This document shows, piece after piece, positions 3,001-9,000 of a stretch of DNA of 18,695 nucleotides (position 1 is its first letter; every line of letters starts with the position of its first letter). Made by a program: the position numbers. The stretch comes from a virus (lineage: Duplodnaviria; Heunggongvirae; Uroviricota; Caudoviricetes), in IMG/VR virus record IMGVR_UViG_2778261593_000006, positions 1 to 18,695 of that record, one strand, 5' to 3'.

Positions 3001-6000
3001 CACCCTGCGGCGTAACTCTGCCACTTCATCCGCCAGACTCATCACCGGTGCCCTCCGATTTCCAGATAAGACGATAATCCTGCTCATGTCTCTTGCCGGT
3101 TTCCGGTACTTTACCCAGCCAGACTTCCTGTAACGGCGCACCTGCCGGAACCGCAAACGGATCTTCGCCGACCGGAATGTCCTGTTCAAAAGAGACACGG
3201 AAAACGATGTAGTCGTCCAGCAGCCGGTCGAAGGTATCCACCTCAGCATCGATAAAAACCGCCGGATCAACGTTATCCAGCCCGAACGTGGCTCCCTCAA
3301 TCCAGTCAGATAAATCCATCGCGAGACAACGGGCAAAAATCTGCGGTTTTGGCACGTTTTCCGTCTTCCCGGCCCGGTCTGTCACCACAAACAGATCACA
3401 TTTCAGCGTGACCCGCGTTTGCCCGTCGGCAAAATGAGCCTTGTCCCAGCCCGGTACATCCACAAACACAGCAGGCGTCACCAGTTGCGTCACTTTTTCC
3501 GGGTACTCATCGGCATCTTCCACCCAGGGAATTTGTTTCAGACTGTCAATCACCGCCTGATGCCAGGCGCCCATCATCAATGGTTCCATCACTCCAGCCC
3601 CTTAAATACCCGGAATTTCAGTTCATGCTCAAAATTTTTCAGGATCAGTACTTCCGCATCCGGAAAAACAAAATCCTCTATACGGTTCAGCATGGCTTCA
3701 TAAATATCAATTTCCGCTTCACGCACCCTCCGTCGTCCGGATGTCTGTCGGATCAGTATCGTTTTCCTTTTTGATATACGTCCGTTACGATTTTCCGCTT
3801 CGAACTGGTTGATAAAGGCATCATCCGTTGACCAGGTGCTGACAGACAGGGATTCCCCGGCAGGTTTAAAACGGATCTCCCGTGCCTTCCTCCGGTGGGA
3901 AGCTGGTGCAAAACGCCCCCGCTCATCGCGCAACTGATGGCGTTCGCCGCGTCGTCCCCCACTGATGCGTCCGCGCAGATCGCGTACTTTGATGGCGTTC
4001 AGACCGAACCATACCTTCGCCTCATCAAACTCATCACCGTTACGACGAATGATAAAATTATGCAGAACACGCTTTTTGATCATTTTCTGACTGCGTGGGG
4101 CAACCTGTTTTTTAAACTCTGCCATAGCCTTCATCCGCAGTGCAGACGCGGCTCTTTTCAGCGCCACGCCCCAGGCTTTACGGATCTGACTTTTTGACCC
4201 ACCCAGTTTAGCGATAATTTTCAGCACCTCATCTTCATCAATATCGACGACGAGGTTTCGTGCCAGCCGTCGCTGCCGGGCACTGCTTCGTTCATGCTCT
4301 CTGACTGCCATAACGTTTACTCGGTCGTTCCGGTGCAGCAGGTGTATTTCTCCCGGGCTCTCCACGCGCAAGGGTGATGGTAATCACCCCCTGACCCGCA
4401 GTGCCTGACTCATCCCAGCCGGGATCGACTACCTGATAGGGTTCGCCGTGGATCATGACCCTGTCATATTTTTTCAGACCGGCGGCCCATGCGCTCCGGG
4501 TAAATAACACGGGCGCAGTATCACGAATTTCGCCGCTGCCAGTGTTCATCCCGGTGTTATCTGCCGGGGCATCAAAAACGGCACGGATTTTTCTTTCCGT
4601 GCCGCCCGGATATATGCTGATTTCCGTCCCCATCGTATCCAGGATGATGTCATCCGCATCACTCATGGCCTGATCGAACAGATTATCGAACATCATCACT
4701 CCCGGATTTTTTCTGCCAGACCGTCTGCCAGCAACGCGGGAACTGTGGCTTCATTAACCAGCACAACACTGGAGGCCCGGGCAAACATCAACATTTTTCC
4801 CGTCACAGCATCACAGGCTGGCATATGCGCCGTTTTCAGCATACGCACCCGGGCGAGTCCCTGCTCAGAATGCATTCCGTCGCCGGATGCATCGTTGCCC
4901 ACCTCTTCCTTCCCCGTCTCCTCCCCATCGAATCCGGCGGCCTCCTCCTCCCATTCCGCCAGACGCTGCTCGAGATCGGCTTTTGAACCTGAAATATCTG
5001 CTTCACGCCCCAGAATCACTGCCAGTTCCTGCAAACGTTCAGTCATCTGCTCTTTTGTCATCACATCTCTCCCGTGCGCTAAAGAAAAAGGCGGGAATAT
5101 CCCGCCTGACCTTATTTCACCTGAACCACCACAAACGCATCCGGATCCGGCAGCACCATCAACGGCGCAGACTGCGTCATGGTATATTCGCAACCAGGAT
5201 CCCCCACTTCCTCCCAGTGTTTCGGATAACGAATCGCAGAGGTGATCCCTTCACTCAGTGCCTGATTATCCTGAATGGCACCATAACAACGGACGCCTTC
5301 CGCCTGAGTGTTCCCCAGAATCAGTGTACCTTCCGGCAGATAACGCTGTTCATCCCCGTTTTCGTCAACATACGTTGTCTTCGCCACCACAATGGCCAGA
5401 TCGCCGTAATGGCCTTTAAAGGAAACCACGGAGCCCAGATCTTTCAGTGCCGTTTCCAGCTCAGATTTGGAGCCACGGCGGGTATCCAGTTTTTCACGGA
5501 ACAGTTTAAAACCGTTCAGCATACGCCAGACCGTGCCGTCCATAATCGCGATATTGATGGTGCCGGAAGCGAAATCGCAGTACGCATCCAGATCATGCGT
5601 CGGATCGAAGGTGTCAGCATTCTGCTGTGACCATTCGCGTCCGCCAGCCTGCGTAATGTTATTGGCGACAGAACGCCCAAAATCCACTTCCACCGTCTCA
5701 AACTGCTCGCCACTCATGGTGTATTTACCCTGCAGAACGGCACTGACCGCCTGCATTTCTTCCACCTGCACAATCGCCTGCTCTTCCTGTTTCAGGTTGT
5801 CCGTCAGAATACGCAGACGGCGGTAAGCCGGGTCATTAAGGCGGGCCGGATCTTCTCCCGGAAGACGTTCCACTGCCTGCTGATAATCAAAGCGGTGTTT
5901 TGGTTTTACATAACCGGGACGTAACACACGGGTTTCACCACCACGGCTGCGCAGCACTTTGCCTGACACCACCGGAGACACATACGCCGCAACCGGTGTT

Positions 6001-9000
6001 TTGCCGGTAATTTTATCCAGCATGACTTCCTGAGTATGGAAAGTGATCGTGCGACGAAAGAACAGCTCCAGAAACAGCGCACGAAATTTCACTTTCTGCT
6101 CGGTGTACCCGAGTAACTGACGCGTGGTAAATAACCCCATAATTTATTTTCCTTCAGAAACACAAACGGGCCGCATCGCGACCCGTTTTTCAGTTAATCA
6201 CTTCACCATCAGGCGTGGCTGATGGCACTTCCCACAAATGCGTTGGCTTTTTTCACCGCATCCACCGAACCAGGCCAGACCAGCGACTCAGTGGCAAACG
6301 TACCGCTTTTGTAATACGTCAGCGTGGGTTCTGTTCCGGCAAGCGCCAGAGCCAGCACCCCCACAGCCGTTCCGGCTTTCTGACCATCCCAGACAACCAG
6401 TTTTCCGGTGGCGTCATCCACCATCAGTGGCGTCAGTGCAGGTGTGGCGGCACTGATACCACTGGTGGCTGTTGCGGTATGCGCCGGATCGCTTCCGGCA
6501 AAAATGCGCACATCTGCACGCTTTTCCGTGGTGGTTTTAATCATTTTTTCAGTCTCCTGATTTATCTGAATTCCGGATATCGCTTACGGCATACTCATCA
6601 GCAGGTCTTCCTCCCCGCGCCCGGCAGTTCCGCCACCGGAAACCGCACTGGCAGCATGCTGTGCCATAAAGCGATCAAAAAGTGTTTCCTGTGACGGTTG
6701 CGATGCCGCCGGCGCGGCTGCCAGCAGCGTTTTCGCCTGCGCCACCGTCATTCCTGGCTGTTCTGTCAGTGCCTGTGCAAGTTGCTCGCGCCCTTTCGCC
6801 TCCGGCAGCGCCATAATCTGATCACCGACACTTGCAGAACCCGCAACCGGTGCCGCCGCCAGTAACGTTTTGGCCTGATCAACGGTCATTCCCGGCTGTT
6901 CAGCCAGCGCCTGCGCGAGTTGTTCACGCCCTTTTGCTTCCGGTAACGCCATAATCTGATCGCCTGTGCCTGCAGCACCGGCAGCAGGGGCTGCCGCCAG
7001 AAACGCTTTCGCCTGCTCCACCGTCATCCCCGGTTGACCTGCCAGCATCTGTGCCAGTTGCTCACGCCCCTTTGCTTCCGGCAGCCCCATAATCTGATCA
7101 CCTGTATTTGCTACACTGGCAGCAGGCACAGCAGCCAGGAACGCTTTCGCCTGCTCTACCGTCATTCCAGGCTGACCTGCCAGCATTTGCGCCAGTTGCT
7201 CGCGCCCTTTCGCCTCCTGACAATTCAGGATCCCCATCACGCGCTGATTTTCCTGGGCCACCGCTTCAGCAACGGTGAGATTTTTAACAGTCATTGCATT
7301 CTCCTTCGTAACAGAGTCATTCAGTGCAGAAACCATCACTTCAACGGCATCTGCAGCATTAATCAGTTGATCAGCCAGACCTGCATCAATGCCTGCCTGA
7401 CCGTCATAAACGGCAGCCTCGGTATTCATCACCGCCTCTGAACTCAGCCCCGTATAAAGCGCCACCTTGTCGACAAACATCCGGCGGGCCTCATCAATAC
7501 GGCGCTGAAAATCTGCACGCACACCTGCCGGCAATGCCTGAATACTGTTGCCATCAACCTTGTGCTGCCCGGAGTAAATCAGCGTGATGTCCACCCCTTC
7601 CTGTGCCAGTTGTTTCTCGTAACTGGCGTGCGCCATCATCACGCCAATCGAACCAATTTTTGCCGTCTGCGTGACCAGCCGACGGGTACAGGCTGCCGCC
7701 AGCAACATGGCGGCTGAACAGGCCATGTCATTACACAGCGCCCACACGGGCTTCTGTTCCCGCAGACGGTAAATCATGTCAGCGCAGTCAAACGCCCCGG
7801 CAGCCTGACCGCCCGGGCTGTCGATATCCAGCAAAATGCCGCGCACATCCGGATCATTCACCGCCATCTGAAGGCGGGCCGTCAGGCCGTCATAGCCAGT
7901 CATGCCGGAGTAAGGCCGCAGGGTACCCAGTTTATGCACCAGCGTGCCGCTCACCGGCAGAATGGCGATGCCATTCTTCACCTGGTAACTCTTTGTCGGA
8001 CGCTGACCGCCCGCCATATAGTCAGTCACAGCCAGTTGCATACCATCAGCATCAAGCTGAACAGCCTGCTGAGGAACAGCAAGGCTGCCGGCTCCCATCT
8101 CTTTACCCAGCGCGCAAAAGAAAACCCGCGCATAGGCGGGTTCCAGTAAAAGCGGTTCATTAAATGCCATGGCGGCAATATGCGATAAATTACGACGCAT
8201 CGACTTTTTCTCCCGTTGTCTGTCGGATCTGCTGCTGAAACGTGTCCTTTATCCAGATGGGGCGGGGAAGACCCGCTGCCTGTCGCTCCTGGCTTTCACG
8301 CAGTTGCTGGCGGAAAATCTCCTGATAGTCATCGCCCATCAGGGCCAGCTCTTTCTCGTACGTGCTTAAACCACCTTCAATACGCATCACCGCTTCCTGC
8401 ACTTCCTTAAGGCCATCAATCGCCATGCGACCGGCACCAATCCACTCGGCACGACACCATCCGGAACGGGCCTCCCAGAATGAAAAACGGGATTTCGGCG
8501 GGCGGATCACACCGCGAATAAGAGCTTCCTCCAGCCAGCAGGCAAACATCTGTGATGCCAGCCGGCTGGCCACAAATTTTCGTTTGCCCATAAAATACCG
8601 CCACGACTCATTGGCGGATGCCCTGGCACTGGAATAACTGACCTGTGAATAATCACGGGAAAGCTGTTCATAGGACACCCCCAGTCCGGCAGCGATGTAA
8701 CGTAACAGCGCCTTTTCCAGTTCAGAGAAACCATTATCTGCATTCTGCGCTGTCTGCAGATTCAGTGAATCCCCCGGATAAAGATGCGGAATACGGACCC
8801 CGCCCAGCTTTACCGTATTGGTGGCGTAATAACGCGCGTAGCCTTTCATGATGGTGTTCAGGGGATTTTTACCGCCATCTCCCACCCCGGCGATATATTC
8901 AAATGCTTTTTCCGAATCCAGCGTGGATTCAATCGTCGCGGCATACATCGCCCGCACCACCGCCGACTGCAGTTGCGTGGCCTGCAGCGTGTCGAGCATC

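Follow-up and report, generated by a model that had tools for sequence, protein, structure and literature searches.

RNA hairpins of intrinsic-terminator form close the decoration and major capsid cistrons in the late operon of a lambdoid Stx2e prophage

The window, i.e. the whole stretch of 18,695 nucleotides that was analysed, comes from a lambdoid Stx2e (Shiga-toxin) prophage with its late genes on the minus strand. The prophage of ETEC1730 is 99.9% identical to it (RefSeq record). At the amino acid level, the E protein shares 82% identity with phage 21 gp7 and Gifsy-1 gpE and 59% with lambda E, and the downstream tail genes belong to the P2/Mu contractile type rather than to that of lambda. 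Genes of the structural operon mostly overlap or abut; the sole long gaps are those flanking D and E, the segment that encodes the two most abundant virion proteins. The calls of D, E and FI given in an initial annotation are upheld by Pfam, and its late-operon setting is correct as well. Read along the late strand, the locus is organized as follows.

6584-8200, minus strand: gene C (S49 peptidase; Pfam)
6209-6544, minus strand: gene D, head decoration, 111 aa (Pfam PF02924 HDPD, E=2.1e-22)
6164..6188, minus strand: hairpin 2, between D and E; stem of 11 bp (one of them U.G) formed by AAACGGGUCGC and GCGGCCCGUUU, loop of 3 nt (GAU)
6188-6178, minus strand: 5' arm of hairpin 2, AAACGGGUCGC
6177-6175, minus strand: loop of hairpin 2, GAU
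6174-6164, minus strand: 3' arm of hairpin 2, GCGGCCCGUUU
6156..6163, minus strand: interrupted U-rich tail 3' of hairpin 2, GUGUUUCU
6154-6150, minus strand: Shine-Dalgarno sequence of E, AAGGA, 3' of the hairpin 2 tail
5112-6140, minus strand: gene E, major capsid, 342 aa, between both hairpins (Pfam PF03864 Phage_cap_E, E=2.8e-65)
5114-5112, minus strand: stop codon TAA of E
5089..5107, minus strand: hairpin 1, between E and FI; stem of 8 bp (7-bp G/C-rich core) formed by AGGCGGGA and UCCCGCCU, loop of 3 nt (UAU)
5107-5100, minus strand: 5' arm of hairpin 1, AGGCGGGA
5099-5097, minus strand: loop of hairpin 1, UAU
5096-5089, minus strand: 3' arm of hairpin 1, UCCCGCCU
5081..5088, minus strand: U-run directly 3' of hairpin 1, UUUUCUUU
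5073-5067, minus strand: Shine-Dalgarno sequence of FI, GGGAGAG
4696-5061, minus strand: gene FI, DNA packaging (Packaging_FI), first gene downstream of hairpin 1 (Pfam PF14000, E=1.5e-13; RefSeq annotation of the ETEC1730 prophage)
4292-4696, minus strand: FII-like gene (Pfam)

The initial annotation described a hairpin with a 7-bp G/C core and a U-run, 5 nt past the E stop, and the sequence of the late strand confirms it. The stem begins 4-5 nt past the stop codon, with the core 5 nt past, and six of its 8 bp are G-C; together with U5089, the U-run reads UUUUUCUUU, with U at 8/9 residues. The ungapped stem has a stability of -13.8 kcal/mol (empirical p=0.017 versus same-size sense-strand windows of the structural operon) and the whole E-FI gap folds at -16.2 kcal/mol (z = -2.3 versus dinucleotide shuffles). 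A second stem-loop, placed by the same annotation at 6164-6190 in the D-E gap, was found at 6188-6164 with 11 bp, one of them U.G, starting 20 nt past the D stop codon TGA. Seven of its 11 pairs are G-C, its stem reaches -16.9 kcal/mol (empirical p 0.004 against the same kind of window), and the D-E gap folds at -19.4 kcal/mol (z = -2.8 versus dinucleotide shuffles), with a weaker antisense fold of -13.1 kcal/mol. The stem-base UUU and the tail form the tract UUUGUGUUUCU, which is interrupted and weaker than that of hairpin 1.

In a terminator scan, both hairpins rank among the top five terminator-like sites of the window, and they are the sole intergenic ones of the 12-kb head/tail operon; simple hairpins as strong or stronger also occur inside the C, W and FII genes. 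Taken alone and in a single window, each is thus only modestly unusual, and what speaks against chance is how they compare with those of related phages. Both have the G/C-rich stem (∼5-14 bp), the loop of 3-8 nt and the U-rich tract directly 3' of the stem that characterize intrinsic terminators. Both also lie as lambda-type intercistronic hairpins do, on the coding strand in the D|E and E|FI gaps between homologous C, D, E and FI genes. They are RNA hairpins of intrinsic-terminator form that close the D and E cistrons within a long late mRNA. Other classes of elements were considered. A repeat family of the REP/BIME type was rejected, each hairpin being single-copy in the window even when as many as 3 mismatches are tolerated, and the unrelated alleles found in relatives likewise speak against it. 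Processing sites for RNase III, such as the R sites of T7, take ∼20 bp or more of double-stranded RNA, and the stems have just 8 and 11 bp. Covariance models of Rfam 15 at the gathering score returned nothing but two tRNAs over the whole window, and zero matches at E<=1 between 4950 and 6350. The hairpin plus U-tail form would be compatible with an Hfq-dependent sRNA from the 3' end of D or E; in the part consulted, a lambda RIL-seq study names only PreS, LPR2 and 6S and no RNA of the D/E gaps. On the late strand, the scan gave no promoter-like sites near the D-E or E-FI gap. Our search of the full-text literature found no experiment on lambda-type D/E hairpins (termination, 3' ends or stabilization).

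Relatives carry hairpins at the same places. Lambda, phage 21, Gifsy-1 and N15 have them at both equivalent junctions (in lambda at about 6080-6134 for D-E and 7161-7201 for E-FI), with unrelated sequences, and the GenBank record of N15 (NC_001901) marks both as 'putative rho-indep. transcription terminator'. Even among prophages with E proteins 83-100% identical, the E-FI gap holds at least six unrelated hairpin sequences; a genome-contig scan with E, which gave 7 loci, contributed only the Trabulsiella and Serratia alleles. Homologues of E occur in 435 phage records. Over a wider range, 24 lineages of the gpE family were compared, with E identities down to 24%, covering enterobacterial, Aeromonas, Vibrio, Pseudomonas, Burkholderia, Marinobacter, alphaproteobacterial and cyanobacterial phages. 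A hairpin at most 70 nt past the E stop that exceeds in strength 95% of equally long windows from its own locus is found in 23/24 (nominal binomial P 3e-29, the 24 lineages being not fully independent). About half of the lineages have a D-E hairpin, and junctions other than D-E and E-FI are mostly shorter than 15 nt and unstructured. Exceptions are the L051 group, devoid of a D-E hairpin, and Vibrio phage XM1, with no clear post-E hairpin; neither hairpin is therefore indispensable. Stems contain G.U pairs in 13 of the 24 lineages. In 23/24, the antisense fold is no more stable than the sense fold, and in 17 it is strictly less stable; this asymmetry, due to these pairs, suggests a structure formed by RNA of the coding strand and selection on the mRNA. 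Collectively, these alignments and folds indicate that hairpins are kept by selection at both junctions in many relatives, and that what is conserved is the structure, while the sequence turns over.

Within the window type, changes are wobble-compatible or convert U.G into G.U, and 97.7-97.9% of the alignment cells are paired over both stems. Hairpin 2 reaches 97.9% over 13 distinct sequences; one pair has gone from U.G to G.U, and the single changes are compatible with wobble pairing. The stem of hairpin 1 is invariant in 11 distinct related sequences, save for one C to U change that gives a U.G pair and for changes of the loop-closing pair, and lies next to a hypervariable 5-nt spacer on its 5' side. 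Covariation in the classical sense is weak within this type, since divergence is too small: the D-E stem has a single double change, the E-FI stem has none, and shuffles show this to be non-significant. The U-run of hairpin 1 shows no variation in 11/11 distinct sequences of the window type. As it is as invariant as the stem, this suggests that termination or another U-dependent step matters in the lineage of the window. Many distant post-E hairpins are devoid of a U-run (Chi, Enc34, PS6, K251, DSS3-P1, PPF1, RcAqua, L073 and L105), which makes the hairpin itself the conserved unit and fits protection or processing better than termination. Thus, the hairpin pair is a real and conserved feature, and already a known one, given the earlier annotation in N15. 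The two hairpins are local versions of a positional feature of gpE-family head modules, namely a stable stem-loop right after the major capsid gene, to which the lambda/21/N15/Gifsy group adds a second one after the decoration gene.

A large part of the interpretation depends on how the late polymerase deals with terminators. In the window prophage, a DUF1133 gene occupies the position of Q; searched against NCBIfam, this gene matched no model. From the lambdoid type of the phage and this Q-position gene we infer that late transcription is antiterminated. The terminator scan detected at least six further terminator-like hairpins upstream on the late strand, in the stretch from the tRNAs to Nu1. 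Together with the phage type and the Q-position gene, they indicate that the late polymerase is probably terminator-resistant, which argues against simple partial termination at D and E. Late transcription of Stx phages is antiterminated (PMC7547250), and with these upstream hairpins on its path read-through is needed anyway.

The initial annotation had proposed that such hairpins, acting as partial terminators or mRNA-stabilizing structures, set the stoichiometry of the capsid relative to the tail genes. A role in the expression of the capsid genes is reasonable, given the intrinsic-terminator form on the transcribed strand and the selection seen in relatives. That the hairpins 'set' the stoichiometry is probably too strong a wording, because Sampson and colleagues reportedly found in 1988 that late-protein ratios in lambda come mainly from translation initiation, with mRNA levels roughly uniform. 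If so, any effect at the mRNA level would be secondary.

The likeliest explanation, in which we place about even confidence, is that the hairpins protect 3' ends and, with some leaky termination, make D-E mRNA more abundant than mRNA of the downstream genes. The polymerase modified by antitermination would mostly read past the hairpins, which would nonetheless fold in the transcript. After an endonucleolytic cut or a 3' end formed downstream, they would stop 3'-to-5' exonucleases, and polymerases that are unmodified, or no longer modified, would terminate there. Both effects would render the D-E segment commoner and longer-lived than the segment from FI to the tail genes, and would come on top of differences in the strength of ribosome-binding sites. 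A broader proposal, advanced more tentatively, takes the post-E stem-loop as a distinct and near-universal RNA element of the head module, with a range that runs from prophages of enterobacteria to phages of alphaproteobacteria and cyanobacteria. What it does in all of them would be something other than termination: it would serve as a barrier to mRNA decay or as a translational insulator that splits the high-output capsid segment from the low-output remainder, and the U-run would be optional and tolerated only under antitermination.

Rather unlikely, in our estimation, are genuine partial terminators, by which a fixed fraction of late polymerases would stop after D and E, so that FI, FII and the tail genes would be transcribed less and RNA stability would have no role. 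The canonical form (G/C stem, 3-nt loop, and a U-run with 8/9 U in hairpin 1 or a U-rich tail in hairpin 2), the U-run unchanged in the 11 distinct related sequences and the label given to the equivalents in the N15 record all speak for them, and partial termination is one of two options raised for phage L (PMC8022706). However, lambdoid late transcription is processively antiterminated and has already passed the at least six terminator-like hairpins upstream. Moreover, Chi, Enc34, PS6, DSS3-P1 and others, which probably do not use such antitermination, keep the hairpin and not the U-run, the reverse of what partial termination predicts.

Less probable still is a translational role, by which the hairpin would tie up locally the sequence that separates a very heavily translated cistron from the ribosome-binding site after it. 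This would block re-initiation on FI by terminating ribosomes (uncoupling) and prevent long-range pairing of the downstream Shine-Dalgarno sequence. The operon layout agrees with it, the overlapping or abutting genes being those expected for translational coupling and long gaps occurring only around D and E. So does the position of the hairpin, which in every lineage ends 5-25 nt before the next Shine-Dalgarno sequence or start codon and in L105 and L073 abuts the Shine-Dalgarno sequence. A translational role has no need of a U-run, and it would suit the view ascribed to Sampson in 1988 that translation initiation sets late-protein ratios. Yet D and E are needed in near-equal amounts, with no obvious reason to uncouple them, and half of the lineages have a D-E hairpin; the terminator-like U-runs of the lambdoid group are also left unexplained.

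Safety terminators, which would stop spurious, non-antiterminated transcription through the structural genes in the lysogen, are the second option raised for phage L (PMC8022706), and in keeping with them, the hairpins of temperate lambdoid phages are shaped like terminators, U-run included. They appear quite improbable, as they account neither for the precise placement after D and E in many independent lineages nor for the hairpin kept at the equivalent site by virulent Chi-like phages. Least credible is the absence of any RNA function, the hairpins being palindromes that arose by chance or features of the DNA, for example recombination joints where modules meet: homology to phage 21 stops exactly at the E stop and the sequence just 3' of the U-run differs among relatives, which makes the site a mosaic boundary, but strong hairpins of unrelated sequence in 23/24 lineages, a G.U asymmetry in favour of the sense RNA and a stem conserved beside a hypervariable spacer speak against it.

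The closest counterparts of the window hairpins are the stem-loops of N15 between genes 7/8 and 8/9 (NC_001901), which occupy the equivalent two junctions between the homologues of D, E and FI in a homologous head module. They and the unannotated equivalents in lambda, phage 21 and Gifsy-1 share with the window hairpins the strand and the hairpin-plus-U form, at a similar distance from the stop codon, whereas the sequences are unrelated, so that the equivalence is positional and structural, not one of homology. The operons differ as well, with a P2-type contractile tail downstream in the window and their own tail types in lambda and N15. In P22-like phages, as discussed for phage L, a terminator-like hairpin likewise follows the procapsid (coat protein) module at once, inside a late operon that has one promoter and is antiterminated; the likeness follows the description in that paper, and P22-like phages have another family of capsid protein and another head module (PMC8022706). 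Of such intra-operon terminators, the phage L genome paper states that 'their roles are not known' (PMC8022706).

Tailed phages require hundreds of capsid subunits for a few copies of neighbouring products, all from one transcript. Cellular operons have intercistronic hairpins that shield the 3' end of an mRNA or serve as decay terminators, in malE-malF (REP), in the Rhodobacter puf operon and in E. coli papA; in each, a stable stem-loop follows the cistron whose product is made in the largest amount and raises the upstream segment relative to downstream genes. REP is a repeated family, in contrast to the single-copy hairpins of the window, and the decay mechanism is one that we infer for the phage hairpins. 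Terminators directly after the major coat gene are exemplified by T-phi after gene 10 of T7 and by the terminator after gene VIII of f1/M13, and share the same logic, with a terminator right after the top-expressed structural gene and read-through that feeds the downstream genes. T-phi, however, acts on T7 RNA polymerase, the f1 terminator works efficiently and delimits nested transcripts, and Q-type antitermination is involved in neither case. For the Stx2e prophage the practical consequence is small, since the hairpin would affect virion production and not toxin expression. A hairpin right after the capsid gene looks like a recurrent and cheap way to unequal output, noticed and annotated before in N15 and P22-like phages, and the comparison adds that in gpE-type head modules it is near-universal, apparently selected on the sense RNA, and often devoid of a U-run.

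Two stem-loops flank the major capsid gene E, one in the E-FI gap (hairpin 1) and one in the D-E gap (hairpin 2). Their coordinates and description in the initial annotation are correct, since arms, loops and tails can be read off the minus strand and both the scan and the folds agree. The features concerned are as follows (head genes from Pfam).

4292-4696, minus strand: FII-like head-tail attachment gene
4696-5061, minus strand: FI (Packaging_FI)
5088-5081, minus strand: tail after hairpin 1, UUUUCUUU
5107-5089, minus strand: hairpin 1, with 5' arm AGGCGGGA (5107-5100), loop UAU (5099-5097) and 3' arm UCCCGCCU (5096-5089)
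5114-5112, minus strand: E stop
5112-6140, minus strand: E (Phage_cap_E)
6188-6164, minus strand: hairpin 2, with 5' arm AAACGGGUCGC (6188-6178), loop GAU (6177-6175), 3' arm GCGGCCCGUUU (6174-6164) and one U.G pair; on its 3' side GUGUUUCU, then the E Shine-Dalgarno
6209-6544, minus strand: D (HDPD)
6584-8200, minus strand: C (S49 peptidase)
16314-17555, minus strand: toxin genes stx2eA and stx2eB, assigned by NCBIfam subtype models, with two tRNA genes upstream
17643-17893: two tRNA genes

The window belongs to an Stx2e-converting, lambdoid E. coli prophage; over 2.1 kb (4600-6700) it matches the chromosome of strain ETEC1730 at 99.9% identity. Upstream of the head genes lie lysis genes, stx2eAB and tRNAs; downstream, ETEC1730 encodes a P2/Mu-type contractile tail. 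The ETEC1730 prophage has a lambdoid early region, with int, xis, exo, repressor/cro, replication genes, rusA and, at the Q position, a DUF1133 gene. The virion module is mosaic (window 557-4311, minus strand; 1-11712 in comparison locus L003): a lambda-type head Nu1-A-W-B-C-D-E-FI-FII abuts P2/Mu-type genes for baseplate V/W/J/I, tail fibre, sheath and tube, and no lambda Z-U-V tail genes are found there. HE-PICIs, satellites that integrate inside prophage late genes, include a site group named for capE, which bears on the E gene and has no relation to the hairpins (PMC10111431).

Both hairpins rank within the top five sites of a consensus terminator scan of the window. The gap folds reach -16.2 kcal/mol (z = -2.3) for hairpin 1 and -19.4 kcal/mol (z = -2.8) for hairpin 2, with empirical p values of 0.017 and 0.004 relative to sense-strand windows of matching size from the structural operon. 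They are the sole intergenic terminator-like hairpins of the 12-kb head/tail operon, where the remaining junctions are short or overlapping, and equally strong simple hairpins are present within the C, W and FII genes. Judged on the window alone, both would be no more than mildly unusual. The structural operon's strongest simple hairpin is intragenic, in the FII-like gene (4576-4607, minus strand; 12-bp stem, 8-nt A-rich loop, -19.3 kcal/mol). A mini-ORF of three codons, ATG GTG AAG TGA (6199-6210, minus strand), overlaps the D stop (TGATG) shortly before hairpin 2, probably by chance.

What makes the feature noteworthy is the comparison across phages: a post-capsid hairpin is nearly universal, apparently selected as sense RNA and often devoid of a U-run. 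The survey took in 15 more remote phages whose capsid protein is of the gpE family (24-47% identity), as well as prophages from Trabulsiella, Serratia and Providencia, and spans 24 lineages; ungapped hairpins in the first 70 nt past the capsid stop were compared with equally long windows of their own locus. The post-capsid hairpin exceeds 95% of these windows in 23 of the 24 (median empirical p 0.009; nominal binomial P = 3e-29, for lineages that are not fully independent and hairpins of unrelated sequence). It occupies a gap of 41-81 nt, while adjoining junctions are mostly <15 nt and unstructured. The sole exception, Vibrio phage XM1 (vB_VpaM_XM1, locus L097), has a 13-bp hairpin of -20 kcal/mol at about +61 from the E stop, inside an ORF annotated as overlapping that stop; the start of this ORF may be mis-annotated, and if it is, XM1 has the post-capsid hairpin also. 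A D-E hairpin occurs in about 12 of the 24 lineages, chiefly in the lambdoid group.

G.U pairs are found in 13/24 post-capsid stems, and in 23/24 the antisense fold is no more stable than that of the sense RNA (strictly less stable in 17/24); for hairpin 2 the values are -19.4 versus -13.1 kcal/mol. This asymmetry is the pattern that a structured late mRNA would give; a palindrome at the DNA level, or a terminator acting on the antisense strand, would not. A U-run (at least 5 U within 10 nt 3' of the stem) follows the hairpin in the window, phage 21, lambda, Aeromonas phage PhAER-1 and the loci L051 and L058, and is missing from Chi, Enc34, Redjac, PS6, K251, BcepNazgul, alphaproteobacterial phages and the loci L073 and L105. 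Given this uneven distribution, it is the hairpin that is conserved, and the terminator tail is lineage-specific. The U-run tends to go with expected processive antitermination, in a small sample confounded by host G+C content.

In a set of 80 IMG/VR prophage loci whose E proteins match that of the window at 83-100% identity, hairpins of at least six unrelated sequences occur in the E-FI gap and of four in the D-E gap, the group of L051 having no D-E hairpin. Members of the window's own type show little divergence: 97.9% of cells are paired in the D-E stem, where U.G is swapped for G.U once and the single changes are compatible with wobble pairing, and 97.7% in the E-FI stem, with zero double changes; covariation within this type is significant against shuffles in neither stem. 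The stem of hairpin 1 and the UUUUUCUUU run are invariant in 11/11 distinct sequences. In informative contrast, the 4-5 nt that separate hairpin 1 from the E stop (5108-5111, with equivalents in loci L004-L049) are hypervariable between prophages that elsewhere are nearly identical (GGTCA, GACGG, GACAG, GACTG, GAGTG and others). The E-FI gap of locus L036 carries hairpin 1 with an inverted loop; its sequence, GGCGGGA-ATA-TCCCGCC, is exactly that of the window hairpin reverse-complemented, which suggests a flip of the palindrome.

The whole window contains 38 terminator-like sites, about twofold the 18.4 +/- 4.5 of shuffled sequence. At least six further terminator-like hairpins occur on the late strand from the tRNAs to Nu1, so that a transcript reaching the head genes must be terminator-resistant by then or come from additional promoters. 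Several strong sites co-oriented with the late genes lie in the stx/lysis region (mostly minus strand 12987-17625) and likewise imply either that an antiterminated polymerase reads through them or that there are several promoters; late transcription in Stx phages relies on antitermination at pR' (PMC7547250). Two tandem strong hairpins between the lysis region and Nu1 (12987-13007 and 13023-13045) fold almost equally on either strand (-15.0 and -14.7 kcal/mol), have U-rich tails on the late strand and adjoin a small plus-strand ORF annotated in ETEC1730.

We favour, with about an even chance of being right, a main action on RNA: the hairpins would block 3'-exonucleolytic decay, polymerases lacking modification would end at them, and both effects would enrich the D-E segment. 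This model is preferred because the transcript must pass the upstream hairpins and the window scan finds no promoter-like site on the late strand close to either gap. Pure partial termination, to which the U-run after hairpin 1 would be suited, is unlikely for a transcript that has passed such sites. For intra-operon terminators of phage L, partial termination and blocking of spurious transcription have been offered as possible roles (PMC8022706). Translational uncoupling or insulation of the ribosome-binding site is somewhat less likely still. Safety termination in the lysogen is improbable, and hairpins devoid of RNA function, given the sense asymmetry, very improbable. The regulatory role putatively assigned by the initial annotation is reasonable; its stress on termination and capsid stoichiometry is probably too strong. 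Work by Sampson et al. in 1988 reportedly found lambda late-protein ratios to be determined mainly by translation initiation; if this is right, the contribution of the hairpins to stoichiometry is limited.

The hairpins have no Rfam match and are not members of a repeat family, and the accessible part of a lambda RIL-seq study gives no sign of Hfq-bound RNA from the D-E or E-FI gaps. The stems fall short of the length needed for RNase III. The same junctions are occupied in known phages. Lambda has AAAGGCCGC-CUGU-GCGGCUUUUUUU in the D-E gap and AUGGCCC-UUCG-GGGCCAU followed by UGUUUCUCU after E; in phage 21, UCAGGCCACC-GCG-GGUGGCCUGA lies in the gap from shp to gene 7, and gene 7 is followed by CGGGGGC-GAAAU-GCCCCCG with the tail UGUCUUUUUU. 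Gifsy-1 and N15 also have hairpins at both junctions, with unrelated sequences. Since the N15 GenBank record labels both of its hairpins 'putative rho-indep. transcription terminator', the pair around a lambda-type capsid gene is already on record, and the window hairpins belong to this annotated, known kind of feature.
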